Positions 2,830 to 59,497 of a stretch of 64,000 bases of DNA are shown here, piece after piece. The stretch spans positions 51,553 through 115,552 of the forward strand of contig DAEN01000040.1 in the NCBI GenBank assembly GCA_002495315.1, written 5' to 3'. The notes below the pieces were generated by a model that was not told the DNA's origin, ran no database searches, and saw nothing but the letters and a program-made list of their open reading frames with translations. Position 1 is the stretch's first letter, and each line of letters opens with the position of its first letter. Both the position numbers and the translations under genes were made by a program. Origin of the DNA: Thaumarchaeota archaeon UBA141. GTDB lineage: Archaea; Thermoproteota; Nitrososphaeria; Nitrososphaerales; UBA141.

Positions 2830-2988
2830 ATGACATCACGACTCCCCGGTGGCGTTAAGAAGAGACTCATGTCAAAAAATAGACAAAACTCTCCAGTCCC
2901 TACATGGGTTACTGTTCGGACGAAGCGGAAAGTGCGTACTAATCCAAAAAGAAGAATGTGGCGGCGGAAAAAGTTGAAGGTGAAGTAA
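2830..2988 (+). CDS. rpl39e: 50S ribosomal protein L39e (below the ORF-track size cut-off)
   Basis: Hand translation gives 52 aa: [52 protein letters not shown]. This is a very basic L39e-like sequence. Its TAA stop overlaps the L31e ATG (TAATG). Confidence 0.85.
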
Positions 2989-3419
2989 TGTCGTCACAAG
3001 AGAAGACCTCTACCTCCAGGATTTACACAGTCCCCTTAGGTCGTGCGTGGGTATCTCCACGACGACATCGGACCAAGCGAGCCATTAACATGATTCGCGA
3101 ATTCGCGATGCGACATATGAAATCTTCAGAAGTAAAAATCGACCAGGGCCTTAGCGAAGAGATCTGGAGTCGAGGAATCGAAAAACCTCCGCGCCGAATT
3201 ACTGTTAAGATGGATAAGGGAGAAGACGGTATTGTTACAGTTTCTCATCTACCAATTGATAATAAAACAACAATAAAGGAATCAAAGCCAGCTTCACAAG
3301 CTGAAGTAAAGGAATCAAAGCCAGCTTCACAAGCTGAAGTAAAGGATACAGTGACAGATTCCGAGACCGAGGGCGTCTCTAAAGACTCTTCTTCACTCGA
3401 GCAAGGTAAGTCGGGGTAG
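2988..3419 (+). CDS. rpl31e: 50S ribosomal protein L31e with a ~55-aa low-complexity C-terminal extension
   Basis: From ATG 2988: [21 protein letters not shown]...RRHRTKRAINMIREF..IWSRGIEKPPRRI is the L31e core. The track ORF starts at an upstream in-frame GTG (2958) that lies inside L39e. The tail holds a repeated KESKPASQAEV. Confidence 0.85.
   Translation: MSSQEKTSTSRIYTVPLGRAWVSPRRHRTKRAINMIREFAMRHMKSSEVKIDQGLSEEIWSRGIEKPPRRITVKMDKGEDGIVTVSHLPIDNKTTIKESKPASQAEVKESKPASQAEVKDTVTDSETEGVSKDSSSLEQGKSG
3276..3341 (+). repeat. Perfect 33-bp tandem duplication (2 copies plus a 5-nt partial third) inside the L31e tail
   Basis: AAGGAATCAAAGCCAGCTTCACAAGCTGAAGTA occurs at 3276-3308 and again at 3309-3341. 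It is in frame and encodes KESKPASQAEV twice. Confidence 0.95.
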
Positions 3420-4457
3420 ACTTTCATCGACGAATGAATCCATGCTATCATCAATCTCTTTGCCCTTCAAAACCTCGGATAAAGGATCGTAACTGTCGAA
3501 CTTGGTTCTACTTAATCCAGAAGCTAGAAGAACAGCAGTCGTACTTGATTTACTATTTGTACTCAAGCCGTATTGTACTCCAACCTTTCCGCGTCCCAGT
3601 AGTGAATGTACGTGGGCCACAGAACTGGCCACGTCGGCAGTAGATATCGACGCATCGCTTGAAAGATGAAGAATCGCACTCTCCGCATCATCGATATTTC
3701 CAATTTGGCCAACAGATTGGATAGCTTCCATAACTGCTGCTTCTACTCGATTGAGTGCTGTGGAGGAACCAAGGCCTAGGACAGAATAGCCTGTAGAAGA
3801 GTTCGTTTCTGCAACCTTGGCTAACCCAACATTCTGAGGTCCATTAGTCGTAGATGTAAGGAGCGCACTGAGCGCTGCCACTATCTTGGTGTTTATGGCT
3901 GCATATGCTGACAAAAGAGGTGTCCGCGGTGAGTATTCTAAGAACATATCATTATCAATTGCAATGACCGCATCTGCCAATTTCTTCAGTTTATTCAAAG
4001 AAAGTGCAGAGTAGAAGTGGCGACTTTTCTCGAACTTGAAGGGCATAACTACGACTGCAACTAACATTTTTCCACAATCATGAACTATTTGGCTTATTGC
4101 TGGAGTAAGAGCAGATCCAACCGTTCCGCCAAGACCTGAAACTATGATAACTACACCTGCGTCGCTAAGCATATTTCGAATTTGATTGAGGTGGCTGTGA
4201 GCTAATCCGCGAACGGAACTGACAGACATTCTCCCTCGAAAAGGGAGATCAACCAGAATCTTATCAGCCTGTTGAGAATCAGAGAAATCTTCCTTATCGG
4301 TACTCACCATAAGGAACTGATGAATAGGAACTTTAGCGCTTACAATTTCCGTTCCAATCCGGCAACCAGCAGTACCTATACCGATGCAGATCGTCTTTTC
4401 TGATGATACCATCTTTGTAGGTTCACTTGAGGGACTCTCCCATGTGGAGGCATTCAT
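3393..4457 (-). CDS. Divergent FtsZ/tubulin-superfamily protein (degenerate GTP-binding and T7 motifs)
   Basis: 354 aa and colinear with FtsZ. It has GIGTAGCRIG (vs GxGGGGxN), STD (vs NTD), SGLGGTVGS (vs GGGTG[ST]G), AIDNDMF (vs IPND) and NVGLAK (vs NxDFAD). Confidence 0.75.
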   Translation of the reverse strand: MNASTWESPSSEPTKMVSSEKTICIGIGTAGCRIGTEIVSAKVPIHQFLMVSTDKEDFSDSQQADKILVDLPFRGRMSVSSVRGLAHSHLNQIRNMLSDAGVVIIVSGLGGTVGSALTPAISQIVHDCGKMLVAVVVMPFKFEKSRHFYSALSLNKLKKLADAVIAIDNDMFLEYSPRTPLLSAYAAINTKIVAALSALLTSTTNGPQNVGLAKVAETNSSTGYSVLGLGSSTALNRVEAAVMEAIQSVGQIGNIDDAESAILHLSSDASISTADVASSVAHVHSLLGRGKVGVQYGLSTNSKSSTTAVLLASGLSRTKFDSYDPLSEVLKGKEIDDSMDSFVDESLPRLTLLE

Positions 4458-4482
4458 TAGACGTTCTTCTGTAAAGAATCAC

Positions 4483-5880
4483 TTAATTGCCATGCGACTG
4501 AAAAGGTTTAACCGATGCTGAATCTGTTTTCACACAATCTTCATTCTTCACAGTTCCAATAAGACAATTGCTTGATGTTGACATGACTTTGACCTTGACT
4601 TTCATGCCAAGCATGTCCCTTGACGACAATTGCAAGAAAACAGGCTTATACGCAAAGTTTCGCCCAATAAATCCTCCCCGTACCTTCTCATCAATGAGCA
4701 CAGATCCTTCATAACCTAACCATTGATCATTTTGTTTCTGCGAAATAGCTCGCACGATCTTATGAAGCGACTGCGTTCGTTCCTTTATAATCTCAGGACG
4801 CACTTGGACCATTTTGGCAGCTCTAGTTCCCATCCGAGGGCTAAATCGAGAGAGATTGACTGTATCTGGATGAACTGTTTTTAGTAGATTAACCGAAGAT
4901 TCAAAGTCCTCTTCCGTCTCTCCTGGAAAACCCACAATAATATCTGTGCTTAGAGCTATCTTCGGAAATTTGTTTCGAAAAGCAGATACTATATCGAGAA
5001 AATCTTCAGCACTGTGGCCTCGCGACATCGAACGAAGAATTTCATCGCTACCACTCTGAACTGGGAGGTGAAGAAATTTGAAAACTTTGGGACTGCGATA
5101 AGCTTCTATTAGGTTATGGTGAATCTTCATGATAAAGAGCGGATTCATCATTCCTACCCTTATGAGGAAGTCTCCTTTACTGTGAGTAACAGCAGTTACG
5201 AGATAAGCCATATTGGTACCTATGTCATGACCATACGGTCCATTATCTGTAGAAGTTAGCCAAATCTCTTTGTACCCCGTATTCACAGCTGTCTGAACTT
5301 GTTTGACGACCATTTTGGGGGAGAAGCTGGAGAGATGTCCCTTTGCCAACTTTGTTGCACAGAATGAGCAGTGACTCAGGCAACCTGTAGCTACTTGTAT
5401 TACATCTATGACTTTTGAGGTTCTAACCTTTGGAAGGAGAAGCTTAGGCCTAAGATCATCTTCAAGATGAAGAATTCTTTTGCCATTCAGACTACCATGA
5501 ACGACGTCCAGAGTTTTTTCTAGAGAACGAGGCCCAATCATCGAAGCTGATGGATCTAGTTTCTCAATGATCTCCTTTTCATTTTTCGGTAAACAACCGG
5601 CTACAATTAACGGCTTACCAGTCTTTGAGAGCTCTCGAATTCGATGTAACATTCTTTGCTCAGTGGCAGTTTTCACCGTGCAAGTAATGATGATATTGAG
5701 ATCAGGACTTGTATATTGACTATGAATGTCACCATGTCTTTCTACATGGAACTTAGCGTCACTTAGTATTCCTTTGACGATCTCAGAATCAGATAGACTT
5801 GCACTGCATCCATAGCTCTCAAGATGAATACTAGGAGTCTTGTCAGTCACTTGAGAATCATCACTGCGAGCCACCGCCAA
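4483..5880 (-). CDS. mtaB: tRNA methylthiotransferase, archaeal/eukaryotic MtaB (CDKAL1-like) radical SAM enzyme
   Basis: 465 aa. It has an N-terminal UPF0004-type domain (IHLESYGCSASLSDSE), a radical-SAM CLSHCSFCATK motif and a C-terminal TRAM-like region. The start (TTG 5880 or GTG 5874) lies inside the preceding gene. Confidence 0.8.
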   Translation of the reverse strand: MAVARSDDSQVTDKTPSIHLESYGCSASLSDSEIVKGILSDAKFHVERHGDIHSQYTSPDLNIIITCTVKTATEQRMLHRIRELSKTGKPLIVAGCLPKNEKEIIEKLDPSASMIGPRSLEKTLDVVHGSLNGKRILHLEDDLRPKLLLPKVRTSKVIDVIQVATGCLSHCSFCATKLAKGHLSSFSPKMVVKQVQTAVNTGYKEIWLTSTDNGPYGHDIGTNMAYLVTAVTHSKGDFLIRVGMMNPLFIMKIHHNLIEAYRSPKVFKFLHLPVQSGSDEILRSMSRGHSAEDFLDIVSAFRNKFPKIALSTDIIVGFPGETEEDFESSVNLLKTVHPDTVNLSRFSPRMGTRAAKMVQVRPEIIKERTQSLHKIVRAISQKQNDQWLGYEGSVLIDEKVRGGFIGRNFAYKPVFLQLSSRDMLGMKVKVKVMSTSSNCLIGTVKNEDCVKTDSASVKPFQSHGN

Positions 5881-6193
5881 TTGGAGGAAGAATTACAATC
5901 TCGTCTCCTCCCTTGAGAACAACCAGGCCAAATTTATCTTCCTCGACCGTCTGACCATTCACTAGTATTGTCAGACCTTCCCTCAAGCGATCATCTCTAA
6001 AGACAAACTCCTCAAGCTTAGATCCATGTGTCTGAACTATCTTTTTGATTGCTTGCTCTATAGTTATCCTCGGGCCAAGAACTATAATTTCCTCCTTCAT
6101 TCCCGTAATTTCCCGCATAATCGCAAAATATTTCACAGTTACTGAGCTCTGTCCCTCTTGCGAAGGTGAATTGTCATCTTTTCTAGTCGTCAT
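5861..6193 (-). CDS. MoaD/ThiS-family ubiquitin-fold protein (SAMP-like) ending in PPIGGGSQ
   Basis: VTVKYFAIMREITG...ILVNGQ...LKGGDEIVILPPIGG is a classic MoaD/ThiS beta-grasp pattern. The likely start is ATG 6193 (MTTRK...); the track ORF extends to 6241. Confidence 0.75.
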   Translation of the reverse strand: MTTRKDDNSPSQEGQSSVTVKYFAIMREITGMKEEIIVLGPRITIEQAIKKIVQTHGSKLEEFVFRDDRLREGLTILVNGQTVEEDKFGLVVLKGGDEIVILPPIGGGSQ

Positions 6194-6273
6194 GATCAAT
6201 TTCTTATAATTATCTGGATATGAAAAGATAGTACAAAACACAAAGCCTAGGGATCACATCTTACACCGCTACA

Positions 6274-7815
6274 TTACGTGTTTGACGTACTTGCAATGCG
6301 TATTTTCCGCCAATTCAAGCTAATACTGCGAGGATGTGAGGCTTGGACTTCATTTAGTCTGCCGACTGTTGTGAATTTGGGTCGAGCTCTTAATTCATTT
6401 GGATTACTGAGTGCTATTTCTCCAATACGATTCAGGGCTCCAGCATACGTATTTAGATTTTCCACAGCCTCAGTCTCTGTTGGCTCTATCATCATAGCTT
6501 CTTGGATGGTCAATGGGAAATAGATCGTTGGGGCATGCAATCCATCGTCAAGTAGAGACTTTGCTAGATCAGTTGCTCGTGTTCCGACTTTATCTCGTAA
6601 TGGTTTAGCACTAACCACAAACTCGTGCTTTCTGGGTAGTCCTTGGTTGTAAGGGAGATCATATGACTTTTTCGATAGTTTTTGCAGTAGGTAGTTGGCA
6701 GCTAAGACAGCCTGTCCCGAAACTTGTCTGAGCCCTTCTTCCCCTAACATCATGATGTATACATATGCTCTAAAAAGCACTCCTATGTTTCCATAGAAAT
6801 CTTTGATCTTTCCGATGCTTTTTGGCATGTTAGACTCGTCAAAAAAATAACGTTCACCATCATGTTCAATAAGAGGAATAGGAAGAAATTCCTCAAGCTC
6901 TTTCACTACTGCTACTGGACCAGCTCCGGGACCTCCACCGCCATGAGGAGTAGAAAAAGTCTTGTGAAGGTTCAAATGCACTATATCAAATCCCAGGTCA
7001 CAAGGTCTGACTCGACCAAGGAGTGCGTTCATATTTGCTCCATCATAGTACATGAGTCCTCCAGCATCATGGATTATTCCCGCGATTTGCTCAACGTTCT
7101 TCTCGAATAGACCATAAGTGTTGGGAACTGTGAGCATCATTCCAGCAGTATGTTTGGAAACTATGTTCTCGACTGCTTTAACGTCAACCAGTCCTTCTGT
7201 ATCAGAGGGGATTTTAACAACGTTGAATCCCGCGTTTGCTGCACTTGCTGGATTTGTTCCATGCGCGGAGTCGGGAACTAACATTTCATTACGGTCATTT
7301 TCTTCTCTCTCTTGGTTTCGCTTCTGCATTATTAGGGCGCCCACAAATTCTCCCTGGGCACCAGCAGCTGGTGCAAGAGATACCCGCTTAGCACCGCTAA
7401 TCTCTTCTAGCATCTTAGAAAGCTCGTACAGGATTTTCAGAATTCCCTGGACAGTTTCAGGAGATTGGTTGGGATGACTTCTCGTGATCTTAGGGTTTAT
7501 TGCAAGACATTCTGCGATCTTTGGATTGTATTTCATCGTACAGCTGCCAAGAGGATACATTCCTAGATCGACAGCAAAATTCATCTGAGAGAGACGAGTA
7601 AAATGCCTGACAACTTGAGGTTCTGATAGGGAAGGCAGGTCTAGGTCATTTTCTCTTTTCATGAGTTCAGGTATACAATTCAGGGCCTTTTTTTCTTCTG
7701 TTCCTTCTATTCTAGGAAGGGAATGTCCCAGTCTCCCTTTCTGGCTCTGCTCAATCAAGAGAGGTTCATTCCAGATTGCTTGTTGGTAGTGATTACGGGT
7801 GGTCATAATCATCAA
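6274..7815 (-). CDS. gcvPB: Glycine dehydrogenase (decarboxylating) subunit 2
   Basis: 513 aa with strong family resemblance (EPLLIEQSQKGR, HLNLHKTFSTPHGGGGPG PLP-lysine region). It lies 5 nt downstream of gcvPA. Confidence 0.9.
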   Translation of the reverse strand: MMIMTTRNHYQQAIWNEPLLIEQSQKGRLGHSLPRIEGTEEKKALNCIPELMKRENDLDLPSLSEPQVVRHFTRLSQMNFAVDLGMYPLGSCTMKYNPKIAECLAINPKITRSHPNQSPETVQGILKILYELSKMLEEISGAKRVSLAPAAGAQGEFVGALIMQKRNQEREENDRNEMLVPDSAHGTNPASAANAGFNVVKIPSDTEGLVDVKAVENIVSKHTAGMMLTVPNTYGLFEKNVEQIAGIIHDAGGLMYYDGANMNALLGRVRPCDLGFDIVHLNLHKTFSTPHGGGGPGAGPVAVVKELEEFLPIPLIEHDGERYFFDESNMPKSIGKIKDFYGNIGVLFRAYVYIMMLGEEGLRQVSGQAVLAANYLLQKLSKKSYDLPYNQGLPRKHEFVVSAKPLRDKVGTRATDLAKSLLDDGLHAPTIYFPLTIQEAMMIEPTETEAVENLNTYAGALNRIGEIALSNPNELRARPKFTTVGRLNEVQASHPRSISLNWRKIRIASTSNT

Positions 7816-7820
7816 ACATC

Positions 7821-9167
7821 CTAATCTCTTAGTTCTGAAGACAATGCAAGAACTAATTGCTCGATTTCTTCTCTCTTATGAATCTCAGTTACACAAAAGA
7901 GGGCAGAATCTTTAAGGCCTTTGAAATATTGTCCCAGAGGATATGCTGCGTGGATACCTCTAAGGCCTAGCCGTAGATGTAGGTCTGTCGTAGTCCTTTG
8001 TTTTTCCTTCTTCCCTAAAACCTCGACTACAAACTCTTTGAAGAACGCTCCCGTGAACAGCGGGGATTTTACTTCATCCAGGGACGCGATTTGTTCAGCT
8101 GCTAGATGGGAATTTGAAAGAATTTTTGCACCGATCTTCCTAAGGCCTTCACCTCCAATAAGTGAAAGATATGCAGCTACACTTACTGCTAATAGTGATT
8201 GGTTCGTACAGATATTAGATGTAGCTCCCTCTCGCCTGATGTGCTGTTCGCGCGTTTGAAGGATCATACTGAAACCCCTTTGACCATTTTCTTGAGTGGA
8301 AGTTAGACCGATTATTCTGCCAGGCATTTCGCGCAGGAATGATAAGTCTCCGCGTGCCGCGAAGACCCCAATAGTAGGTCCCCCAAAGTTCATGTGAAGT
8401 CCAATTGACTGTCCATCTCCAACTACAATATCTGCTCCATAATCACCAGGAGACTTTAGGACTCCAAGAGAAATCGGATCGATCCCTACGATCATTAGAG
8501 CATCCCGTGAATGGATCTCCTCTGCTAACGACGCCCCTTGCGTCTCGATTACTCCAAAGAAATTTGGATTTTCAATGTAAACTGCTGCTGTATTGTCATC
8601 AAAAAGGTCTAGTATTTTCTCTGTACTCGACTCTCCGGTCTGCCAGTCAAAATCTGCTACCTTGATCTCTATGCTTAGAGGTTTGCAATAGATCTGAAGA
8701 ACATCAAGACGTTCGGGACCACATGAGGCTGAGACAACAATATTTCGTTTGCGTTTTACTCTTACCGCCATCCTGGCCGCTTCCCCTAATGCGGACGCCC
8801 AATCATACATGGAACAGTTGGCGGCATCCATGCCTGTAATATCACAAATAAGGCTCTGATACTCAAAAAGGGTCTGAAGCATTCCTTGACTTATTTCAGG
8901 TTGATACGGAGTGTACGCAGTGTAGAACTCAGATCTCGACGTGATCGCATCCACTGCAGCGGGGACATAATGTGGTGCTATGCCTCCCCCAAGAAAACAA
9001 GGATATTCTGGATATGTTCTATTTTTGTTGAGGATTTTCTCAACATTACTAGATAATTCCCACTCAGTTGAAGAGGGGGGTAGTTTCAGAGGTTTAGACA
9101 GACGAAGGTGTTCTGGAATATCTGAAAAGAGTTCCTCAATTGAGCTAACACCAATCTCATTAAGCAT
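7821..9167 (-). CDS. gcvPA: Glycine dehydrogenase (decarboxylating) subunit 1; the true start is probably upstream (to about 9224)
   Basis: 448 aa from the first ATG. The conserved N-terminal HHYLPNSPDHITRQ is encoded in frame immediately upstream, with no ATG, GTG or TTG available (see findings). Confidence 0.9.
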   Translation of the reverse strand: MLNEIGVSSIEELFSDIPEHLRLSKPLKLPPSSTEWELSSNVEKILNKNRTYPEYPCFLGGGIAPHYVPAAVDAITSRSEFYTAYTPYQPEISQGMLQTLFEYQSLICDITGMDAANCSMYDWASALGEAARMAVRVKRKRNIVVSASCGPERLDVLQIYCKPLSIEIKVADFDWQTGESSTEKILDLFDDNTAAVYIENPNFFGVIETQGASLAEEIHSRDALMIVGIDPISLGVLKSPGDYGADIVVGDGQSIGLHMNFGGPTIGVFAARGDLSFLREMPGRIIGLTSTQENGQRGFSMILQTREQHIRREGATSNICTNQSLLAVSVAAYLSLIGGEGLRKIGAKILSNSHLAAEQIASLDEVKSPLFTGAFFKEFVVEVLGKKEKQRTTTDLHLRLGLRGIHAAYPLGQYFKGLKDSALFCVTEIHKREEIEQLVLALSSELRD

Positions 9168-37550: not shown

Positions 37551-38591
37551 TCAGGTGGTTATTAGCTCAACCTGATTGGCCTCAATAGCTCGACGTACTT
37601 CTAGAGCGATTCTACGTCCCATGCTCATTTTTGTATCATAAAGCAAAGCTGTATATGGTGAACCTTCGATAAAGAGATTGGTTCCAGCTACAATCCTACC
37701 TGAGAATTCAAAGGAAACGAATTTTCCATCTCCATCATAAATCCCTTCTATACAAAAAGGGCCAACAATTCCTGGAGGTACTAAAACCTGAGAAGCGCGG
37801 ACAAACCTTTCTCCTATCTTGTAGACTTCGTCCAGCAGAGACTCTCTCAACACAAGGGGAGAATTTCCCACAACGATGTAGGAAGGCGCACTTGTTCCCA
37901 TCTCAATTTGTGCTGACGCAGGAATCCTTCCTAGGCCGTCTACATTGGTTTCATATCTCCGATCTATCCCAAAGAATTCAAGCTCGCGGCTGAGGGGCGA
38001 AAAAAAGTACTGAAGATAGACTGGTACTCCTTTGATATATTCCTGGATGTAGACATTTTCCTCTTCACTATTTCGGATCAATCCATCAGATCTTAGCGCG
38101 GCGAGTTTTTCCTCGTAGCTCTTGGTATTGGTTGCTAGGAAATAGCCGCGGCCTCCGGCTGCGCCCGAAAGCTTCGCTATGACAAGTCGATCAATCTCGC
38201 TGGGATCATTATACGATTTTGGTAGGTTCAATCTTGCAGCCTTCATCAGCTTTTCTTTCTGCAGTCGATCCGCCTCCCACCGGAGGATATACCGATTCCC
38301 AAAGACCGGAATTGGCAGAGATTCCTCAATCGCGTCTACTCCAACTTCTGAGATTAATGTACCATGAGGAATAAGAATAGAGTCTGTCTGCTTTAACCTC
38401 CTAATTCTTGTGGGAGAGACTATGTCAGAGAATTTCTTTACTTGTATCATATTATCGATGAACTTAAACCGATTGTAGAGGCTCTGGCGGTCCTGTTTTG
38501 TCACCAGAAGAGTCGAAAAGCCTTCGTCCTTAGCTCCTTTCAGAAGTTGCAGAGCACAGTGGGACCCAAGGGTCGCTATCGTCTTGATCAT
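37551..38591 (-). CDS. purP: 5-formaminoimidazole-4-carboxamide ribonucleotide (FAICAR) synthetase PurP, paralog 1
   Basis: 346 aa. IATLGSHCALQLLKGAKDEGF is the PurP N-terminus, followed by an ATP-grasp body. Confidence 0.8.
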   Translation of the reverse strand: MIKTIATLGSHCALQLLKGAKDEGFSTLLVTKQDRQSLYNRFKFIDNMIQVKKFSDIVSPTRIRRLKQTDSILIPHGTLISEVGVDAIEESLPIPVFGNRYILRWEADRLQKEKLMKAARLNLPKSYNDPSEIDRLVIAKLSGAAGGRGYFLATNTKSYEEKLAALRSDGLIRNSEEENVYIQEYIKGVPVYLQYFFSPLSRELEFFGIDRRYETNVDGLGRIPASAQIEMGTSAPSYIVVGNSPLVLRESLLDEVYKIGERFVRASQVLVPPGIVGPFCIEGIYDGDGKFVSFEFSGRIVAGTNLFIEGSPYTALLYDTKMSMGRRIALEVRRAIEANQVELITT

Positions 38592-39689
38592 TTATGTTAT
38601 GATCTCTCCTAACCGTGACTGTTGGGCTGCCCTTTTGATTTCCATAGATATTCGTCTTCCCGTTCCTATCGTTTTTCCATGATAGTACCTTGAATATGGA
38701 CTCGTAGTCGTTAGAATCGGGCTCCCCGGTACTCTTGGTGAGACATCATACACATAGATCTCAAGGTCAAGAGTTATGACGCTTTGAAGGGCGAATGGTC
38801 CAATTGGTCCTGGAGGATATTCGCGCTTTACTGCAGCAACGAAACGCTCTCCAATCTCAAAGACCTTCTCTAGTAATGACTCTCTGATGGTTGCAGGCGT
38901 ATGTCCAACTTCCACATTTTGGAGCTCAATATCCATCTCCAACTGGTTCTTGGCAGGCAGTGAAGTAAAATCATTAACATTTGTCTGAAGTCTCCTGTCG
39001 ATTCCAAGAAACTCTAGGTTATCCTCAAGAGGCGAATAGAAGTAGTTGAAATTGAAGTACGTACCAACAAGAAACTCTTCAATAGTAGCTCTATCAAGGT
39101 CATCTTTGCGAATAATTCCTGCATTAATGCGCTGAGTGGACCGCTTCGTATATTCAGAGAACGAGGTCGCAACAAAAAATGCTCGTTCAATACCTCTCTT
39201 TGCCTCCGGAACTTTCACCATCACAGGTCGGTCGATCTCTTCTGCTCGACTAAAGATCTTCGGGAGTTTGATCCCTGCTTGTTCTAGAAGGAAGTACTGG
39301 TTTCGTGGTGCGTCGCGTTCCTCGCTGCGAAGGAGGGCACGGTTCCCAAAGAGTGGAACCAGGAATTCTTCTTCGATAGCGTCGAAGCTGAGATAGGTGG
39401 TGAAGGAGCGGTGAGGAATAAAGATGACATTGGATTGTATAAGGCGATTTTGGATTTCCTCACTCATGACATCTGCAAACTTGGGGAGGATGACTATCTC
39501 GTCGGCTAGTCGTTTGAACTTTAGGTAGGCCTTTTCACGACCTTGTTGACAAAATAGAATGGTCTTCAGACCCTCATCTTTTGCGCCATCCATGATGTCC
39601 AGAGCTGAATGACTCCCAATAACTCCTACACTAATATCCTCTGGGTCATATCTAGAAACTATTTGCTGAATAGACTTCAGATTTATCAT
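38592..39689 (-). CDS. purP: PurP-family ATP-grasp enzyme, paralog 2
   Basis: 365 aa. VGVIGSHSALDIMDGAKDEGL is colinear with the downstream paralog. Its TAA stop directly abuts the next ATG. Confidence 0.8.
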   Translation of the reverse strand: MINLKSIQQIVSRYDPEDISVGVIGSHSALDIMDGAKDEGLKTILFCQQGREKAYLKFKRLADEIVILPKFADVMSEEIQNRLIQSNVIFIPHRSFTTYLSFDAIEEEFLVPLFGNRALLRSEERDAPRNQYFLLEQAGIKLPKIFSRAEEIDRPVMVKVPEAKRGIERAFFVATSFSEYTKRSTQRINAGIIRKDDLDRATIEEFLVGTYFNFNYFYSPLEDNLEFLGIDRRLQTNVNDFTSLPAKNQLEMDIELQNVEVGHTPATIRESLLEKVFEIGERFVAAVKREYPPGPIGPFALQSVITLDLEIYVYDVSPRVPGSPILTTTSPYSRYYHGKTIGTGRRISMEIKRAAQQSRLGEIIT

Positions 39690-48278: not shown

Positions 48279-48953
48279 TTAGTGTGAGTTCTTCATCACC
48301 ACGGGGCCTCTTGGTGAAGTCTCCCCGAAGATCTCCGCCTGAAACCTGTAGATCTTAGCATCACCTAACAACCAGGAATTGGAAGGAGCACCTGCTTTCA
48401 TGCAAACATTAGATAGGAATTCCTCTGGACCCCAGTCATATTCCACAGAGACTTGTGGTAAGAGGATACCAGAGAGTCCTCGCCAATGGAATACAAGGCC
48501 ATCCCTTCCCACTCTGATGGCGTTTAGATAATCCTTCGGTGACTTCACATTTACGAGCGAAAAGGTGCTTAGGATACTAATTTCTAGGACAATTTCTTCT
48601 AGCTCTTTAGCTAAGAGAGGGGGAAACCGCGGATCACGACTAGACGCGGCAACAGCCATCTCAATTACTGTGTCGACCAGAGGACTTTCAGTCTCACATA
48701 CTCCAATACAACCTCTTAGCTCCTTATTCTCACCATTCTGAAATTTGTTGATAGTGACGAACGCAGCAGCAGGTTCGACCAATGTACTCGATAAAGGACT
48801 TGGGCGTTCTATGAGTTCTCCATTCTTTAGATATGATTCTATAGCCCTTCGTGCTGTTCTTATAAGAAAACCTGCGTCACTAAGTAATAGAGGCAAAACG
48901 TATCCGCCCAGATACGTTAATGCAGATTCAATCTCGCTTAAGCCTTTCCTCAA
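48279..48953 (-). CDS. AMMECR1 domain protein
   Basis: 224 aa with the LRGCIG motif and flanking AMMECR1 pattern. An alternative TTG start at 48896 would remove the overlap with the upstream gene. Confidence 0.8.
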   Translation of the reverse strand: MRKGLSEIESALTYLGGYVLPLLLSDAGFLIRTARRAIESYLKNGELIERPSPLSSTLVEPAAAFVTINKFQNGENKELRGCIGVCETESPLVDTVIEMAVAASSRDPRFPPLLAKELEEIVLEISILSTFSLVNVKSPKDYLNAIRVGRDGLVFHWRGLSGILLPQVSVEYDWGPEEFLSNVCMKAGAPSNSWLLGDAKIYRFQAEIFGETSPRGPVVMKNSH

Positions 48954-49419
48954 TGTTTTTTGCCTGTTTCAATATTCTGTTCCAATGACTTCCCAGCCAG
49001 TATACTTTATCACAGGGAGAACAGCTGTAGAATTCTTGATGGCTATTGAGTATTCCATGTGGAACCTTCTTTGGTAAGTCTTGTCTATTAGCAGCAACAA
49101 GATAGCCGTTGCACTTTGGACAACGAGATTTCGCATGATCTAGTTGAACTTCTTCCATCTGCAGCTCGGTGAATATGGCTATGAGCCGATCTTCGTCAGT
49201 ATTTTCCTGAACCAATATGGAGTTAATCCCTCTCTTCTTAGCTATTCCGAAGAGGTCGCGGTCCGCGGTCAGTAACACTCGTTTTTCTTTTCGAACAAGA
49301 TCTAGCAACAGCTGGTCATCGGTGGTTGTATCATAGAGAACATTAAAGCCCCAGATGCGTAGCTTTCTAGCTAGGCTACCAAGCATTCCATCTGCAAAAA
49401 ATGTAATATTTTCGGTCAT
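48928..49419 (-). CDS. Mut7-C/PIN-like RNase domain protein (DUF82) with a C-terminal zinc ribbon
   Basis: 163 aa. FFADGMLGSLARKLRIWGF is the family N-terminus, followed by LTADRDL and CPKCNG...CSPCDKVYW. Confidence 0.7.
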   Translation of the reverse strand: MTENITFFADGMLGSLARKLRIWGFNVLYDTTTDDQLLLDLVRKEKRVLLTADRDLFGIAKKRGINSILVQENTDEDRLIAIFTELQMEEVQLDHAKSRCPKCNGYLVAANRQDLPKKVPHGILNSHQEFYSCSPCDKVYWLGSHWNRILKQAKNIEERLKRD

Positions 49420-54849: not shown

Positions 54850-54922
54850 ATCTGCTCCTCGTCTATCTCGAATGGGGATGCTATTTTAACCCTTGAACGT
54901 TCTGTGTCTTCGTTCGATACTG

Positions 54923-55402
54923 ATGGCTCTGACTAGGCGCTATCGAGTTGTAGCAACTGGGGGCACCTTTGACTTGTTACATAAAGGACATAAGGCTCTT
55001 CTAAAACGAAGCTTCGATGTTGGAGATCACGTGATAATCGGAATCACATCCGATGTTTTGGCACGTAGAATGGGAAAGAACCATGCAAGGAAGTACTTTG
55101 ACAGGGAAACAGAACTTCGTACTTATTTGACGCGAGAATTTCAAGGTAGAAGCTATGAAGTAACAGAACTCCAGGACTTCTTTGGTCCAACAGTAACTCG
55201 CAGTGATGTAGAAGCTATTGTAGTAAGTGAAGAGACGTTAGAAAGGGTTGAAGAAGCGAGGCAACACAGGCAAGAACAGGGCAATCCTGATCTTTGTGCT
55301 GTCCTTGTGAAATATGTATTAGCGGAGGACGGCAAGCCTATCTCAACAAGAAGGATAACGTCAGGAGAGATCGATAAAGAAGGGAAGTTGAGGACGACCT
55401 AA
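54923..55402 (+). CDS. Phosphopantetheine adenylyltransferase (archaeal type, cytidylyltransferase fold)
   Basis: VVATGGTFDLLHKGHKALL is the (T/H)xGH nucleotidyltransferase motif. ATG 54923 is preferred over the track's TTG 54893. Confidence 0.75.
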   Translation: MALTRRYRVVATGGTFDLLHKGHKALLKRSFDVGDHVIIGITSDVLARRMGKNHARKYFDRETELRTYLTREFQGRSYEVTELQDFFGPTVTRSDVEAIVVSEETLERVEEARQHRQEQGNPDLCAVLVKYVLAEDGKPISTRRITSGEIDKEGKLRTT

Positions 55403-58570: not shown

Positions 58571-59497
58571 TTACTTTTTCATTTGAAGTAGCTCAATGTT
58601 ATGACATATTTGACAGAGGTTATTCGACGAGATTTCTCCACATTTGAGACATTGAGACGCAGAGTCATCCTTTTGAATGTCTAAGGATTGCGCTATTCCG
58701 ATAACAGCACGAAGGGTTGTATATTTGATTCCTGAGTGTTCCTTCTCTAATGCATTTAGCATTTGACGAATCTCAGACCTGATGCCTTCGTTCATATAGG
58801 GACAGCTGATGTTCTGAAAGCGGTTTCCACTCACGTAAGAATGAAAAGCAATTTCACGCTCATAGATCTCCATTAGTGGTTTGATTCTGCGGATCGCGTC
58901 GGGATTCTTGGGCCTAAGAATGGGGTCGAGCTGGCGAATTCGTTCAAAGTCTCCACTAAGAGTGTTGATGAAGTGGGTTTGAATAATATCATCTAAATTG
59001 TGACCTGTTGCTATGACAGTAGCACCAATCTTCCGCGCGGCTAGATCAATTGCCCGTCTCCTAAATGGTCCACAAGTACTACAGGCTGTTATTTTCATAT
59101 CCCCGCGCCGTCGTAATGCTTCATCCAATCCCATACCAAATATCTCCTCGTAGGAAAATAGATGCATTCTCAGACCCAAATCTGTCGAAATTTCTTTCGC
59201 AAGTTGAATTCCTTCATCACGGTACCCCGCGATCCCTTCATCTATCGTGATGACCTCAAGAGATGAGTCATGGCCTGAACAGATTTGCTTAAGGATACGG
59301 ACTAACGCTAAGCTGTCTTTTCCCCCAGAGACAGCTACAGCTATCCTATCGTTGTGTTCAAGCATATCGTATTTCGCGATTGTTCTCTTAACTTTCTCTT
59401 CAATTGAGGCAATAAAACACAGCGCACAAAGATGCTGGCCTGAATACGGTCTAGAATAGACGGAGGGTTTTCCGCACTTATTGCATTCTTTGTGCAT
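58571..59497 (-). CDS. tRNA 2-thiolation PP-loop ATPase (TtuA/NcsA/Ctu1 family)
   Basis: 308 aa with an N-terminal CNKCGK...CALC zinc finger, the SGGKDS PP-loop and a C-terminal CLKCGE...CQIC zinc finger. Confidence 0.8.
   Translation of the reverse strand: MHKECNKCGKPSVYSRPYSGQHLCALCFIASIEEKVKRTIAKYDMLEHNDRIAVAVSGGKDSLALVRILKQICSGHDSSLEVITIDEGIAGYRDEGIQLAKEISTDLGLRMHLFSYEEIFGMGLDEALRRRGDMKITACSTCGPFRRRAIDLAARKIGATVIATGHNLDDIIQTHFINTLSGDFERIRQLDPILRPKNPDAIRRIKPLMEIYEREIAFHSYVSGNRFQNISCPYMNEGIRSEIRQMLNALEKEHSGIKYTTLRAVIGIAQSLDIQKDDSASQCLKCGEISSNNLCQICHNIELLQMKK

Follow-up and report, generated by a model that had tools for sequence, protein, structure and literature searches.

Ubiquitin-like (Ubl) proteins whose thiocarboxylate feeds an Fe-S tRNA-modifying enzyme are represented by TtuB-TtuA, Urm1-Ncs6 and SAMP2-NcsA, and these systems served as the working analogy for the locus described here. 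To our knowledge, no Ubl sulfur donor is known for radical-SAM methylthiotransferases. In the QbsE/QbsD, CysO/Mec+ and HcyS/HcyD systems, the protease is encoded within the same cluster, and the JAMM enzymes that clip such tails include QbsD, Mec+, HcyD and HvJAMM1. Cleavage of MoaD-MoaE by DRJAMM is reported as well (PMC8832034). TtuB-COSH passes its sulfur to TtuA at a [4Fe-4S] cluster with an open iron site, and the sulfur donor of methylthiotransferases in vivo is still unsettled (PMC8584467). An association of ThiS and TRAM genes in Pyrococci was noted by Makarova and Koonin in 2010, who speculated that the Ubl might be the sulfur carrier; TRAM is an RNA-binding domain found in 2-methylthioadenine synthetases (PMC2948915).

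The window, that is the whole stretch of 64 kb that was analysed, contains a ThiS-family gene (ThiS in the following), which opens an old and conserved ThiS-e-MtaB pair inside a gcvPA-gcvPB-ThiS-mtaB-ftsZ/tubulin string. The relevant features are:

3393..4457, minus strand: tubulin/FtsZ-family gene, 25 nt downstream of mtaB (Pfam Tubulin, E=6.9e-21)
4483..5880, minus strand: e-MtaB (CDKAL1-type) tRNA ms2t6A methylthiotransferase, given as the longest ORF from TTG 5880 (UPF0004 and Radical_SAM domains, TIGR01578)
5861..6193, minus strand: ThiS, a MoaD/ThiS-family protein (archaeal MoaD / SAMP1-like) of 110 aa from ATG 6193 (PF02597, TIGR01687)
5864..5869, minus strand: Ser-Gln tail of ThiS, followed by tandem stops TGA TGA (read from the sequence)
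5870..5875, minus strand: codons of the canonical diglycine G107-G108 (Pfam and NCBIfam profiles end here, and most homologs stop at the aligned position)
6274..7815, minus strand: gcvPB, glycine-cleavage P-protein subunit (Pfam GDC-P / GcvP2_C)
7821..9167, minus strand: gcvPA, glycine-cleavage P-protein subunit (Pfam GDC-P / GcvP2_C)
58571..59497, minus strand: PP-loop TtuA/NcsA-like tRNA 2-thiolation enzyme (Pfam ATP_bind_3 and TtuA_LIM_N)

According to profile comparisons, ThiS is an archaeal MoaD/SAMP1-type protein with a predicted beta-grasp (ubiquitin) fold. It matched PF02597 over the entire profile (positions 1-76 of 76) with 51.7 bits (cutoff 22.5; E=1.3e-13) and the archaeal MoaD model TIGR01687 (moaD_arch) with 65.5 bits (cutoff 49.5), and profile matches to the solved MoaD/SAMP1 structures 1VJK, 2G1E, 2L52 and 3PO0 had E=6e-18 to 1e-9. 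The scores for two equivalog models stayed below their cutoffs, 50.2 bits against 60 for SAMP1 (NF041918) and 37.7 against 66.15 for MoaD (TIGR01682). The SAMP1 cutoff is passed by the ThiS orthologs of L090, L099 and L120, the first of which is named 'ubiquitin-like small modifier protein 1' at NCBI. ThiS is the sole ThiS-family ORF within the 64-kb window, and all residues invariant in the family are kept. Its start codon is uncertain, with TTG 6199 and GTG 6136 (91 aa) as alternatives to ATG 6193. Inspection by eye revealed a TATA-like, AT-rich element upstream of the gene (TTATAA, 6204..6209), which is not conserved in L001.

The product of the neighbouring gene, e-MtaB, scored 412.6 bits with TIGR01578 (cutoff 314.7), and all six cluster cysteines (C25, C67, C96 and C167, C171, C174) are present and invariant in the alignment. 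Pfam TRAM was not matched at E<=0.01; the C-terminal part can nevertheless be aligned to homologs, and PF01938 is present in some of these. The sequence-only reading, which had named a MoaD/ThiS-type protein at 5861..6193 and an MtaB/CDKAL1-type methylthiotransferase at 4483..5880, was therefore correct for both genes. It had also described an overlap of 20 nt between them. Close linkage of the two genes in the window is certain, but the overlap holds only if translation of mtaB starts at TTG 5880, and it was rejected as an established fact. Two further starts are available: GTG 5874, which a public gene caller chose for the 100% identical P0154, and GTG 5850, which is located 10 nt past the ThiS stop and leaves a leader of 10 aa ahead of the E-x-Y-G-C core. 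In most relatives, leaders of 7-12 aa are found; spacers between ThiS and mtaB are 10-13 nt in four relatives, and others show a 4-nt overlap or longer gaps. Judged by these comparisons, GTG 5850 fits better than TTG 5880. The 4-nt stop/start overlap, GTGA, occurs at the junction in 13 contigs, and such overlaps point to translational coupling of ThiS and mtaB.

Family homologs were collected by an exhaustive HMMER search, and 150 of them were compared. A scan of the GTDB genome contigs with the single ThiS sequence gave no match; close relatives of this lineage are not represented among these genomes, the best MtaB identity being 48-50%. e-MtaB is immediately preceded by ThiS in the window, in L001-3, L006, L007 and L087-L090, and in about 25 further metagenomic loci. 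The linkage suggested from the single sequence is thus conserved: the mtaB-linked ThiS proteins comprise 29 distinct cores, which form 15 clusters at 70% identity and differ down to 28% pairwise identity. Both the closest MtaB homologs (L089, L090) and the closest GTDB genome (L007) carry the pair, and it is kept where the flanking genes are changed (L099, L103, L113) or the orientation is flipped (L155). In the L092 clade, L118, L155 and the P0005 contig, a DUF59/FeS_assembly_P gene is found immediately upstream of ThiS. In a rough neighbour-joining tree, calculated without the MoaE-adjacent P0004, mtaB-linked ThiS sequences fell into two regions apart from ThiS adjacent to aldehyde:ferredoxin oxidoreductase (AOR) genes, and unlinked sequences were present inside both. 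By source names, one region belongs to Nitrososphaerota and the other to Bathyarchaeia. Adjacency of ThiS and e-MtaB is thus a conserved feature of Bathyarchaeia and of those Nitrososphaerota that do not oxidise ammonia, which is a new result.

The surroundings of the pair are conserved as well. The gcvPA-gcvPB genes form the upstream part of the string, and the same order is found in L001, L093, L120 and L147. The tubulin gene adjoins mtaB downstream in 64 of 80 Nitrososphaerota loci and belongs to a conserved mtaB-tubulin-L31e block. Since gcvP and ftsZ/tubulin genes without an obvious tie to sulfur are also part of the string, adjacency within the pair could be inherited gene order. Even if no sulfur is transferred, the locus would be of value as a gene order that has been kept for an unusually long time.

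The C-terminus of ThiS reads ILPPIGGGSQ. This end had been interpreted as a diglycine followed by GSQ, and the protein indeed runs beyond the diglycine, but by two residues instead of three. The canonical motif is PP[IV]xGG, and because the Pfam and NCBIfam profiles as well as about 100 of the 150 homologs end at G107-G108, the sequence has to be divided into GGG and SQ. In the primary translation, the Ser-Gln dipeptide thus trails residues 107-108. Sequencing artefacts do not account for it, since the identical end is present in independent assemblies (P0001, with 16 members on 10 contigs, and L091). Some tail is found in about one third of the 150 homologs. Among the mtaB-linked orthologs, the PPxGG end, the handle for adenylation, is invariant, and the tails are diverse: none, L, G, TK, YVD/YID, SLS, TEA, SQ, SRW and SRWRFSADG. 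At least nine of these proteins stop exactly at GG, and in the clade of the window itself the tails SQ, SRW and SRWRFSADG differ by successive loss of stop codons. An extension conserved among orthologs, for which a survey had been suggested, was consequently not observed, and activation by a protease is not supported as a defining trait. By its distribution, the Ser-Gln tail looks incidental and not like a designed pro-sequence. If sulfur transfer to MtaB fails, archaeal MoaD-like proteins would commonly possess short, neutrally evolving tails behind Gly-Gly, which would advise caution in regarding such tails as regulatory pro-sequences.

Genes for partner enzymes, for which a search had been suggested, were not detected near the pair. 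In the 64-kb window, Pfam and motif scans revealed no JAMM, E1, rhodanese or MoaE gene; the JAMM motif (H[STAV]H...[ST]xxD) is absent from all window ORFs of at least 70 aa, as is the E1 glycine-loop motif from the window. Pattern matches at other loci were spurious in the case of JAMM, and the E1-pattern matches were read as tubulin glycine loops, as they are located in the ORF that follows mtaB, the position of tubulin/FtsZ. When 114 neighbouring ORFs, lying within about 6 kb of 11 linked loci, were classified by Pfam, none of the families ThiF, JAB, MoaE and rhodanese recurred among them. Where the sequence-only reading had placed a TtuA/NcsA-type thiolase, a TtuA/NcsA-like PP-loop gene is present. 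It passed TIGR00269 and did not reach the equivalogs for NcsA (186, cutoff 500) and TtuA (170, cutoff 450). It is located 52 kb from ThiS and is not linked to it; its product is possibly a second client of the putative thiocarboxylate carrier.

ThiS and mtaB do not depend on each other strictly. In the sister lineage L001-3, mtaB is frameshifted twice and ThiS is intact; the L147 group has kept gcvPAB-ThiS-FtsZ, with mtaB gone from the block; and in 76 of 77 informative Nitrososphaerota genome loci, ammonia oxidisers being of this kind, mtaB is found without a nearby ThiS. For these reasons exclusivity fails, and the suggestion that the carrier is dedicated to ms2t6A formation is not supported. 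The dN/dS value of the ThiS core is 0.18, indicating purifying selection, compared to 0.28 for mtaB and 0.09-0.18 for most neighbours. In L006, the mtaB core reads E-D-R-G-C instead of E-S-Y-G-C. A role of ThiS as putative shared sulfur carrier, with MtaB as one likely client, is plausible.

Our preferred reading, held tentatively and with a probability somewhat short of even, is that ThiS is a shared thiocarboxylate carrier in the conserved pair, that MtaB is a probable client, and that the tail is incidental. An E1-like enzyme encoded elsewhere would adenylate the Gly-Gly end and thereby lead to the thiocarboxylate, from which sulfur would be handed to Fe-S-dependent tRNA-thiolating enzymes. 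Co-translated e-MtaB, one probable client besides others, would accept it via the auxiliary [4Fe-4S] cluster, in the way TtuA is supplied by TtuB. Since translation of ThiS extends past the diglycine, a peptidase step would be needed ahead of adenylation. The SQ tail may have arisen by drift of the stop codon where ThiS and mtaB are packed closely together, and it would be clipped by a JAMM/MPN+ enzyme or another peptidase reading the fold and not the tail. The activating and trimming enzymes are assumed, since E1 and JAMM genes are absent from the window and do not recur in the 11 linked neighbourhoods. The following points also count against the carrier model: e-MtaB of ammonia oxidisers works without a neighbouring ThiS, an archaeal e-MtaB formed ms2t6A in vitro with just dithionite and SAM (PMC10702137), and in Thermococcus kodakarensis without all three Ubl genes the levels of ms2t6A and ms2hn6A were unchanged (PMC11323500). 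A stricter version appears rather unlikely, in which (DUF59)-ThiS-e-MtaB constitutes a dedicated module for sulfur resupply: sulfur for restoring the auxiliary [4Fe-4S] cluster, which is spent in each turnover, would come from the ThiS thiocarboxylate, and DUF59, at loci that have it, would aid rebuilding. If true, it would provide the first physiological sulfur donor for an enzyme of the MiaB/MtaB/RimO family, for which regeneration of the auxiliary cluster is an open question in the field, and ubiquitin-like sulfur carriers would gain a new class of clients. With its fixed position beside e-MtaB over two archaeal classes, ThiS is a concrete candidate for such a donor.

It is also conceivable, if on balance doubtful, that ThiS is a general-purpose MoaD/SAMP protein, acting in Mo/W cofactor synthesis, TtuA/NcsA-type s2U formation or protein conjugation without a functional tie to MtaB, and that the gene order was inherited from a common ancestor of Nitrososphaeria and Bathyarchaeia. 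The match to TIGR01687, relatives adjacent to MoaE (P0004) or to AOR (L126, L132), and conservation of gcvPAB-ThiS-mtaB-ftsZ as a whole block would be explained in this way, as would the survival of ThiS after pseudogenisation (L001-3) or clean loss (L147) of mtaB, the survival of mtaB after loss of ThiS in ammonia oxidisers, and the missing effect of the Ubl deletions on ms2t6A (PMC11323500). Inherited order is less easily reconciled with an adjacency that withstands exchange of the other neighbours and inversion, with GTGA overlaps suggesting translational coupling, and with the separation from AOR-adjacent sequences in the rough tree. The recurrent Fe-S-assembly gene (DUF59) upstream suits a client consuming its own Fe-S cluster, and MoaE is absent from the window and from the surroundings of the 11 linked loci.

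The remaining explanations are less attractive. A non-sulfur role of ThiS, as ubiquitin-like modifier or as a partner, structural or regulatory and in stoichiometric amounts, of MtaB or the downstream tubulin-like protein, with the glycine end serving conjugation or being unused, is improbable: translational coupling would be expected for equimolar partners, archaeal SAMPs/Ubls do form protein conjugates (PMC11323500), and regulation by SAMPylation was offered as an alternative for the Ubl-TRAM links (PMC2948915), but the adenylation handle is invariant in all linked orthologs, conjugation machinery was not seen around the 11 linked loci, and a complex with MtaB or the tubulin-like protein is hypothetical. 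Very improbable is an MtaB-dedicated pro-protein carrier like QbsE, CysO or HcyS, whose tail gates activity via a cognate JAMM enzyme. The translation past GG and the tails of several linked orthologs are in line with it; the tailless orthologs, the unconserved length and sequence of the other tails, the absence of JAMM motifs or domains from the window and of recurrent ones at linked loci, and the persistence of ThiS beyond mtaB in L001-3 and the L147 group are not. Hardly to be expected, finally, is decay of the module in the genus-level clade of the window, with tail-bearing ThiS functionally compromised like the mtaB pseudogene of the sister lineage. The lengthening of tails by stop-codon loss, the two frameshifts in L001-3, the altered L006 core and the elevated dN/dS of mtaB could be signs of it, but ThiS is under purifying selection with all invariant residues retained, and mtaB of the window is intact with complete catalytic cysteines.

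Compared to known systems, ThiS resembles the archaeal MoaD/SAMP1 proteins (Haloferax volcanii SAMP1, the Methanosarcina SAMP1 homolog, and those of Pyrococcus and Thermoplasma) in length range, family and PPxGG motif, but it differs by its SAMP1 score below the cutoff, by the two residues beyond GG, and by a location next to e-MtaB rather than MoaE, E1 or AOR. With QbsE/QbsD, CysO/Mec+ and HcyS/HcyD it shares the extension past the diglycine, whereas its tail is short, variable among relatives and often missing, and no JAMM gene is nearby. Unlike in TtuB-TtuA, the neighbour of ThiS is a radical-SAM methylthiotransferase, the TtuA-like gene of the window being unlinked. With respect to the ThiS-TRAM association of Pyrococci, a direct Ubl-MtaB association is absent from Table 1 of that study (PMC2948915), the present lineages being unsequenced at that time; stand-alone TRAM proteins are involved there, while a whole e-MtaB is found beside ThiS here.

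The following two adjacent genes of the window were analyzed:

5861..6193, minus strand: ThiS, a ThiS/MoaD-family protein of 110 aa (Pfam PF02597, NCBIfam TIGR01687)
4483..5880, minus strand: intact gene mtaB for the CDKAL1-type tRNA methylthiotransferase e-MtaB, with UPF0004 and radical-SAM domains (Pfam) and TIGR01578

Judged by its profile matches, ThiS is clearly a member of the ThiS/MoaD family. The match to PF02597 (E=1.3e-13) covers the whole profile, and the score for TIGR01687, the archaeal MoaD subfamily, is 65.5 bits versus a cutoff of 49.5, while the NCBIfam cutoffs for the SAMP1 equivalog (50.2 versus 60) and the bacterial-type MoaD equivalog (37.7 versus 66.15) were missed. An ortholog profile matched solved structures of MoaD-like proteins from Pyrococcus and Thermoplasma and of SAMP1 from Methanosarcina and Haloferax. 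No other ThiS-family ORF is present in the 64-kb window. By sequence, ThiS is an ordinary archaeal MoaD/SAMP1-like family member, and it is the genomic context that is unusual. Its start codon is uncertain: ATG 6193 occurs in the window only, a TTG two codons upstream is common to two relatives, and the public gene call in an 88%-identical relative begins at a GTG equivalent to 6136. The C-terminus, DEIVILPPIGGGSQ, is followed by tandem TGA stops and is identical in independent assemblies (P0001, L091). Homologs were sought exhaustively among 1.84 billion representatives. Since all profiles, and about 100 of the 150 top-ranking homologs, end in alignment with G107-G108 (family motif PP[IV]xGG), the tail past the Gly-Gly consists of two residues, SQ. 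The sequence-only reading was thus right about the family and the neighbouring mtaB, and wrong in assigning a GSQ extension.

The window contains archaeal markers, among them TiaS, L31e, S19e, Nep1, Orc1/Cdc6, and a proteasome subunit, and the best matches of its MtaB among 185,579 species genomes were Nitrososphaerota proteins of only 44-50% identity. These data place it in a deep-branching Nitrososphaerota lineage lacking a close genome representative. Its GC content is 44%. Assemblies from ENA and Logan, like the metagenome Ga0187827, include near-identical contigs. The following two genes, also counted among the archaeal markers, were taken to be of the PurP type (5-formaminoimidazole-4-carboxamide ribonucleotide synthetase):

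37551..39689, minus strand: two tandem paralogous genes with DUF1246 and DUF1297 (Pfam)

Elsewhere (48279..49419, minus strand), the genes for AMMECR1 and for a protein with a Mut7-C RNase domain share about 26 nt, both being read from one strand.

e-MtaB scores 412.6 for TIGR01578 (cutoff 314.7), and both cysteine triads are kept in a 34-sequence alignment. For its gene, three in-frame start candidates exist. TTG 5880 produces the 20-nt overlap with ThiS proposed earlier, GTG 5874 was chosen for the identical public protein P0154, and GTG 5850, 10 nt beyond the ThiS stop, yields a leader of 10 aa. Most relatives have 7-12 residues ahead of the MtaB E-x-Y-G-C core. Between ThiS and mtaB, four relatives have spacers of 10-13 nt, 13 contigs show an overlap of 4 nt (GTGA), and the remainder have longer gaps. 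GTG 5850 fits best because its leader and 10-nt spacer match the relatives, although one of them, L006, keeps the TTG alone. The tight coupling of the two genes is certain, the 20-nt overlap is not.

Linkage of ThiS to mtaB is conserved, but not general. Among the best 80 Nitrososphaerota mtaB loci in GTDB, 77 had sufficient upstream sequence to judge, and only one, L007, which has the top E-value of the MtaB list, contains a ThiS-family ORF within 10 kb, directly 5' of mtaB. In a collection of 5.8 billion proteins, the closest MtaB proteins (P0155 and P0156) are encoded with ThiS directly 5' and a tubulin-family gene 3', and among the closest ThiS homologs, P0012 and P0024 are each directly followed by mtaB. 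A metagenome scan with a ThiS alignment detected 80 loci. Of the top 35, about 25 have e-MtaB straight after ThiS; L155 has the pair in convergent orientation. In total, 29 distinct linked ThiS cores were obtained (22 clusters at 90% identity, 15 at 70%), with pairwise identities as low as 28%. In a rough neighbour-joining tree they fall into two regions, one with the window and the other with L099, L103, L120, and others, and both also hold some unlinked ThiS. By source names, a member of the window group is Thaumarchaeota/Nitrososphaerota, and a MetRS cluster on the L099 contig is named Bathyarchaeota. Other family members adjoin MoaE (P0004) or aldehyde:ferredoxin oxidoreductase:

L132:3069-6273 and L126:5887-8312: MoaD_arch-family genes beside aldehyde:ferredoxin oxidoreductase

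Loci of the L132 type have, nearby on the opposite strand, another ThiS-like ORF, which is divergent and ends in ...PVSHGG.

The pair is embedded in a wider arrangement. The order gcvPA-gcvPB-ThiS-mtaB-FtsZ/tubulin is shared by the window, L001, L093, and L120. In the window (2958..5880), mtaB is followed after 25 nt by the tubulin/FtsZ-family gene and then by L31e on the opposite strand, and this mtaB-tubulin(-L31e) block occurs in 64 of the 80 Nitrososphaerota loci (L007-L086), including ammonia oxidisers without a ThiS gene. Within the L31e gene (2958..3419), a 33-nt unit is repeated perfectly in tandem, in 2.2 copies (3274..3346, plus strand), so that the 11-aa unit KESKPASQAEV is duplicated in a C-terminal extension of the ribosomal protein. 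A small DUF59/FeS_assembly_P gene, absent from the window, lies directly 5' of ThiS in the L092 clade, L118, L155, and the P0005 contig:

L093:5593-5925, L118:5639-5923, and L155:5681-5986: DUF59/FeS_assembly_P gene (SufT/MIP18-like) 5' of ThiS-mtaB

In several linked lineages, DUF59, ThiS, and mtaB thus constitute a three-gene module with an Fe-S/sulfur theme.

In the following loci, ThiS is retained although mtaB is disrupted or missing beside it:

L001:10257-11660: twice-frameshifted mtaB, equivalent to window 4483..5880
L147:2927-8247: ThiS clade with the order gcvPA-gcvPB-ThiS-FtsZ-PHP, also in L136, L138, L142, L143, and L160

In the 88%-identical sister lineage, mtaB lacks one nucleotide within the Y-G-C motif and has gained one in P-V-Q-S-G-S; both frameshifts recur identically in three independent assemblies (L001, L002, L003). 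Its ThiS is intact (dN/dS 0.18; mtaB 0.28; most neighbours 0.09-0.18). In the L147 group, mtaB is cleanly gone from an otherwise retained block. The partnership is not obligate, and the suggestion that ThiS might be dedicated to ms2t6A formation could not be upheld.

The tail, suggested earlier to render the carrier dependent on a protease, proved variable. Nine linked orthologs end exactly at GG (L088, L089, L090, L108, L111, L118, L119, L120, L125), others carry L, G, TK, YVD/YID, SLS, or TEA, and about one third of ThiS-family homologs have some tail. The L tail is found in 13 contigs, where its CTG codon contributes to the GTGA overlap. In the clade of the window itself, SQ, SRW, and SRWRFSADG reflect stop codons lost one after another (first TGA to TGG, then TGA to CGA). 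The tail is explained best by neutral drift of stop codons where the two genes leave little room between them. Where present, it would have to be trimmed if ThiS is to be adenylated, and a JAMM-type enzyme recognising the fold would tolerate such variation. A motif search detected no JAMM or E1 motif in any window ORF, and Pfam no JAB, ThiF, or MoaE domain among 46 of 63 selected window ORFs; most of the others were read by synteny with L001 or by eye alone. Around 11 linked loci (114 ORFs), the Pfam census showed recurrence of ThiS, UPF0004/Radical_SAM, Tubulin, GDC-P, MetRS, EMG1, and FeS_assembly_P, and none of ThiF, JAB, MoaE, or rhodanese. The window and these loci support neither a regulatory role of the tail, nor protease gating, nor a linked cognate protease. 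Archaeal Jab protease genes are frequently located beside cytidylyltransferase-like genes (Makarova and Koonin, PMC2948915); no Jab/JAMM gene adjoins the one in the window:

54893..55402, plus strand: cytidylyltransferase-like gene

Several observations argue for a functional link: the pair is old and common to two classes, it has withstood inversion and changes of flanking genes, translational coupling is probably frequent, and an Fe-S-assembly protein is sometimes added. Against an exclusive or obligatory link count the apparently independent losses of either gene, the non-sulfur genes within the block, and genetic data from T. kodakarensis, in which ms2t6A and ms2hn6A were unchanged without all three Ubls (PMC11323500), so that ms2t6A needs no Ubl there. 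One archaeal e-MtaB also works in vitro without a carrier (PMC10702137). On balance, we tentatively favour the view that ThiS is a shared thiocarboxylate carrier and that e-MtaB is probably among its clients. The main alternative, a general MoaD/SAMP protein whose position by mtaB is inherited synteny, is considered somewhat less probable.

The sulfur donor of methylthiotransferases has been described as undetermined, with cluster-bound (poly)sulfide and a sacrificial auxiliary cluster as rival models, and TtuA/Ncs6 receive sulfur at an Fe-S cluster from TtuB/Urm1 thiocarboxylates (PMC8584467). In Pyrococci, Makarova and Koonin saw ThiS linked to TRAM and offered the speculation that a Ubl might carry sulfur for 2-methylthioadenine synthetase; no MiaB/MtaB link appears among the associations they tabulated (PMC2948915). 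No description of a ThiS-MtaB operon was found in the searched literature. To judge by this literature, the pair represents a variant of Ubl sulfur-carrier systems that had not been described, and it is a directly testable candidate for the sulfur-donor question.
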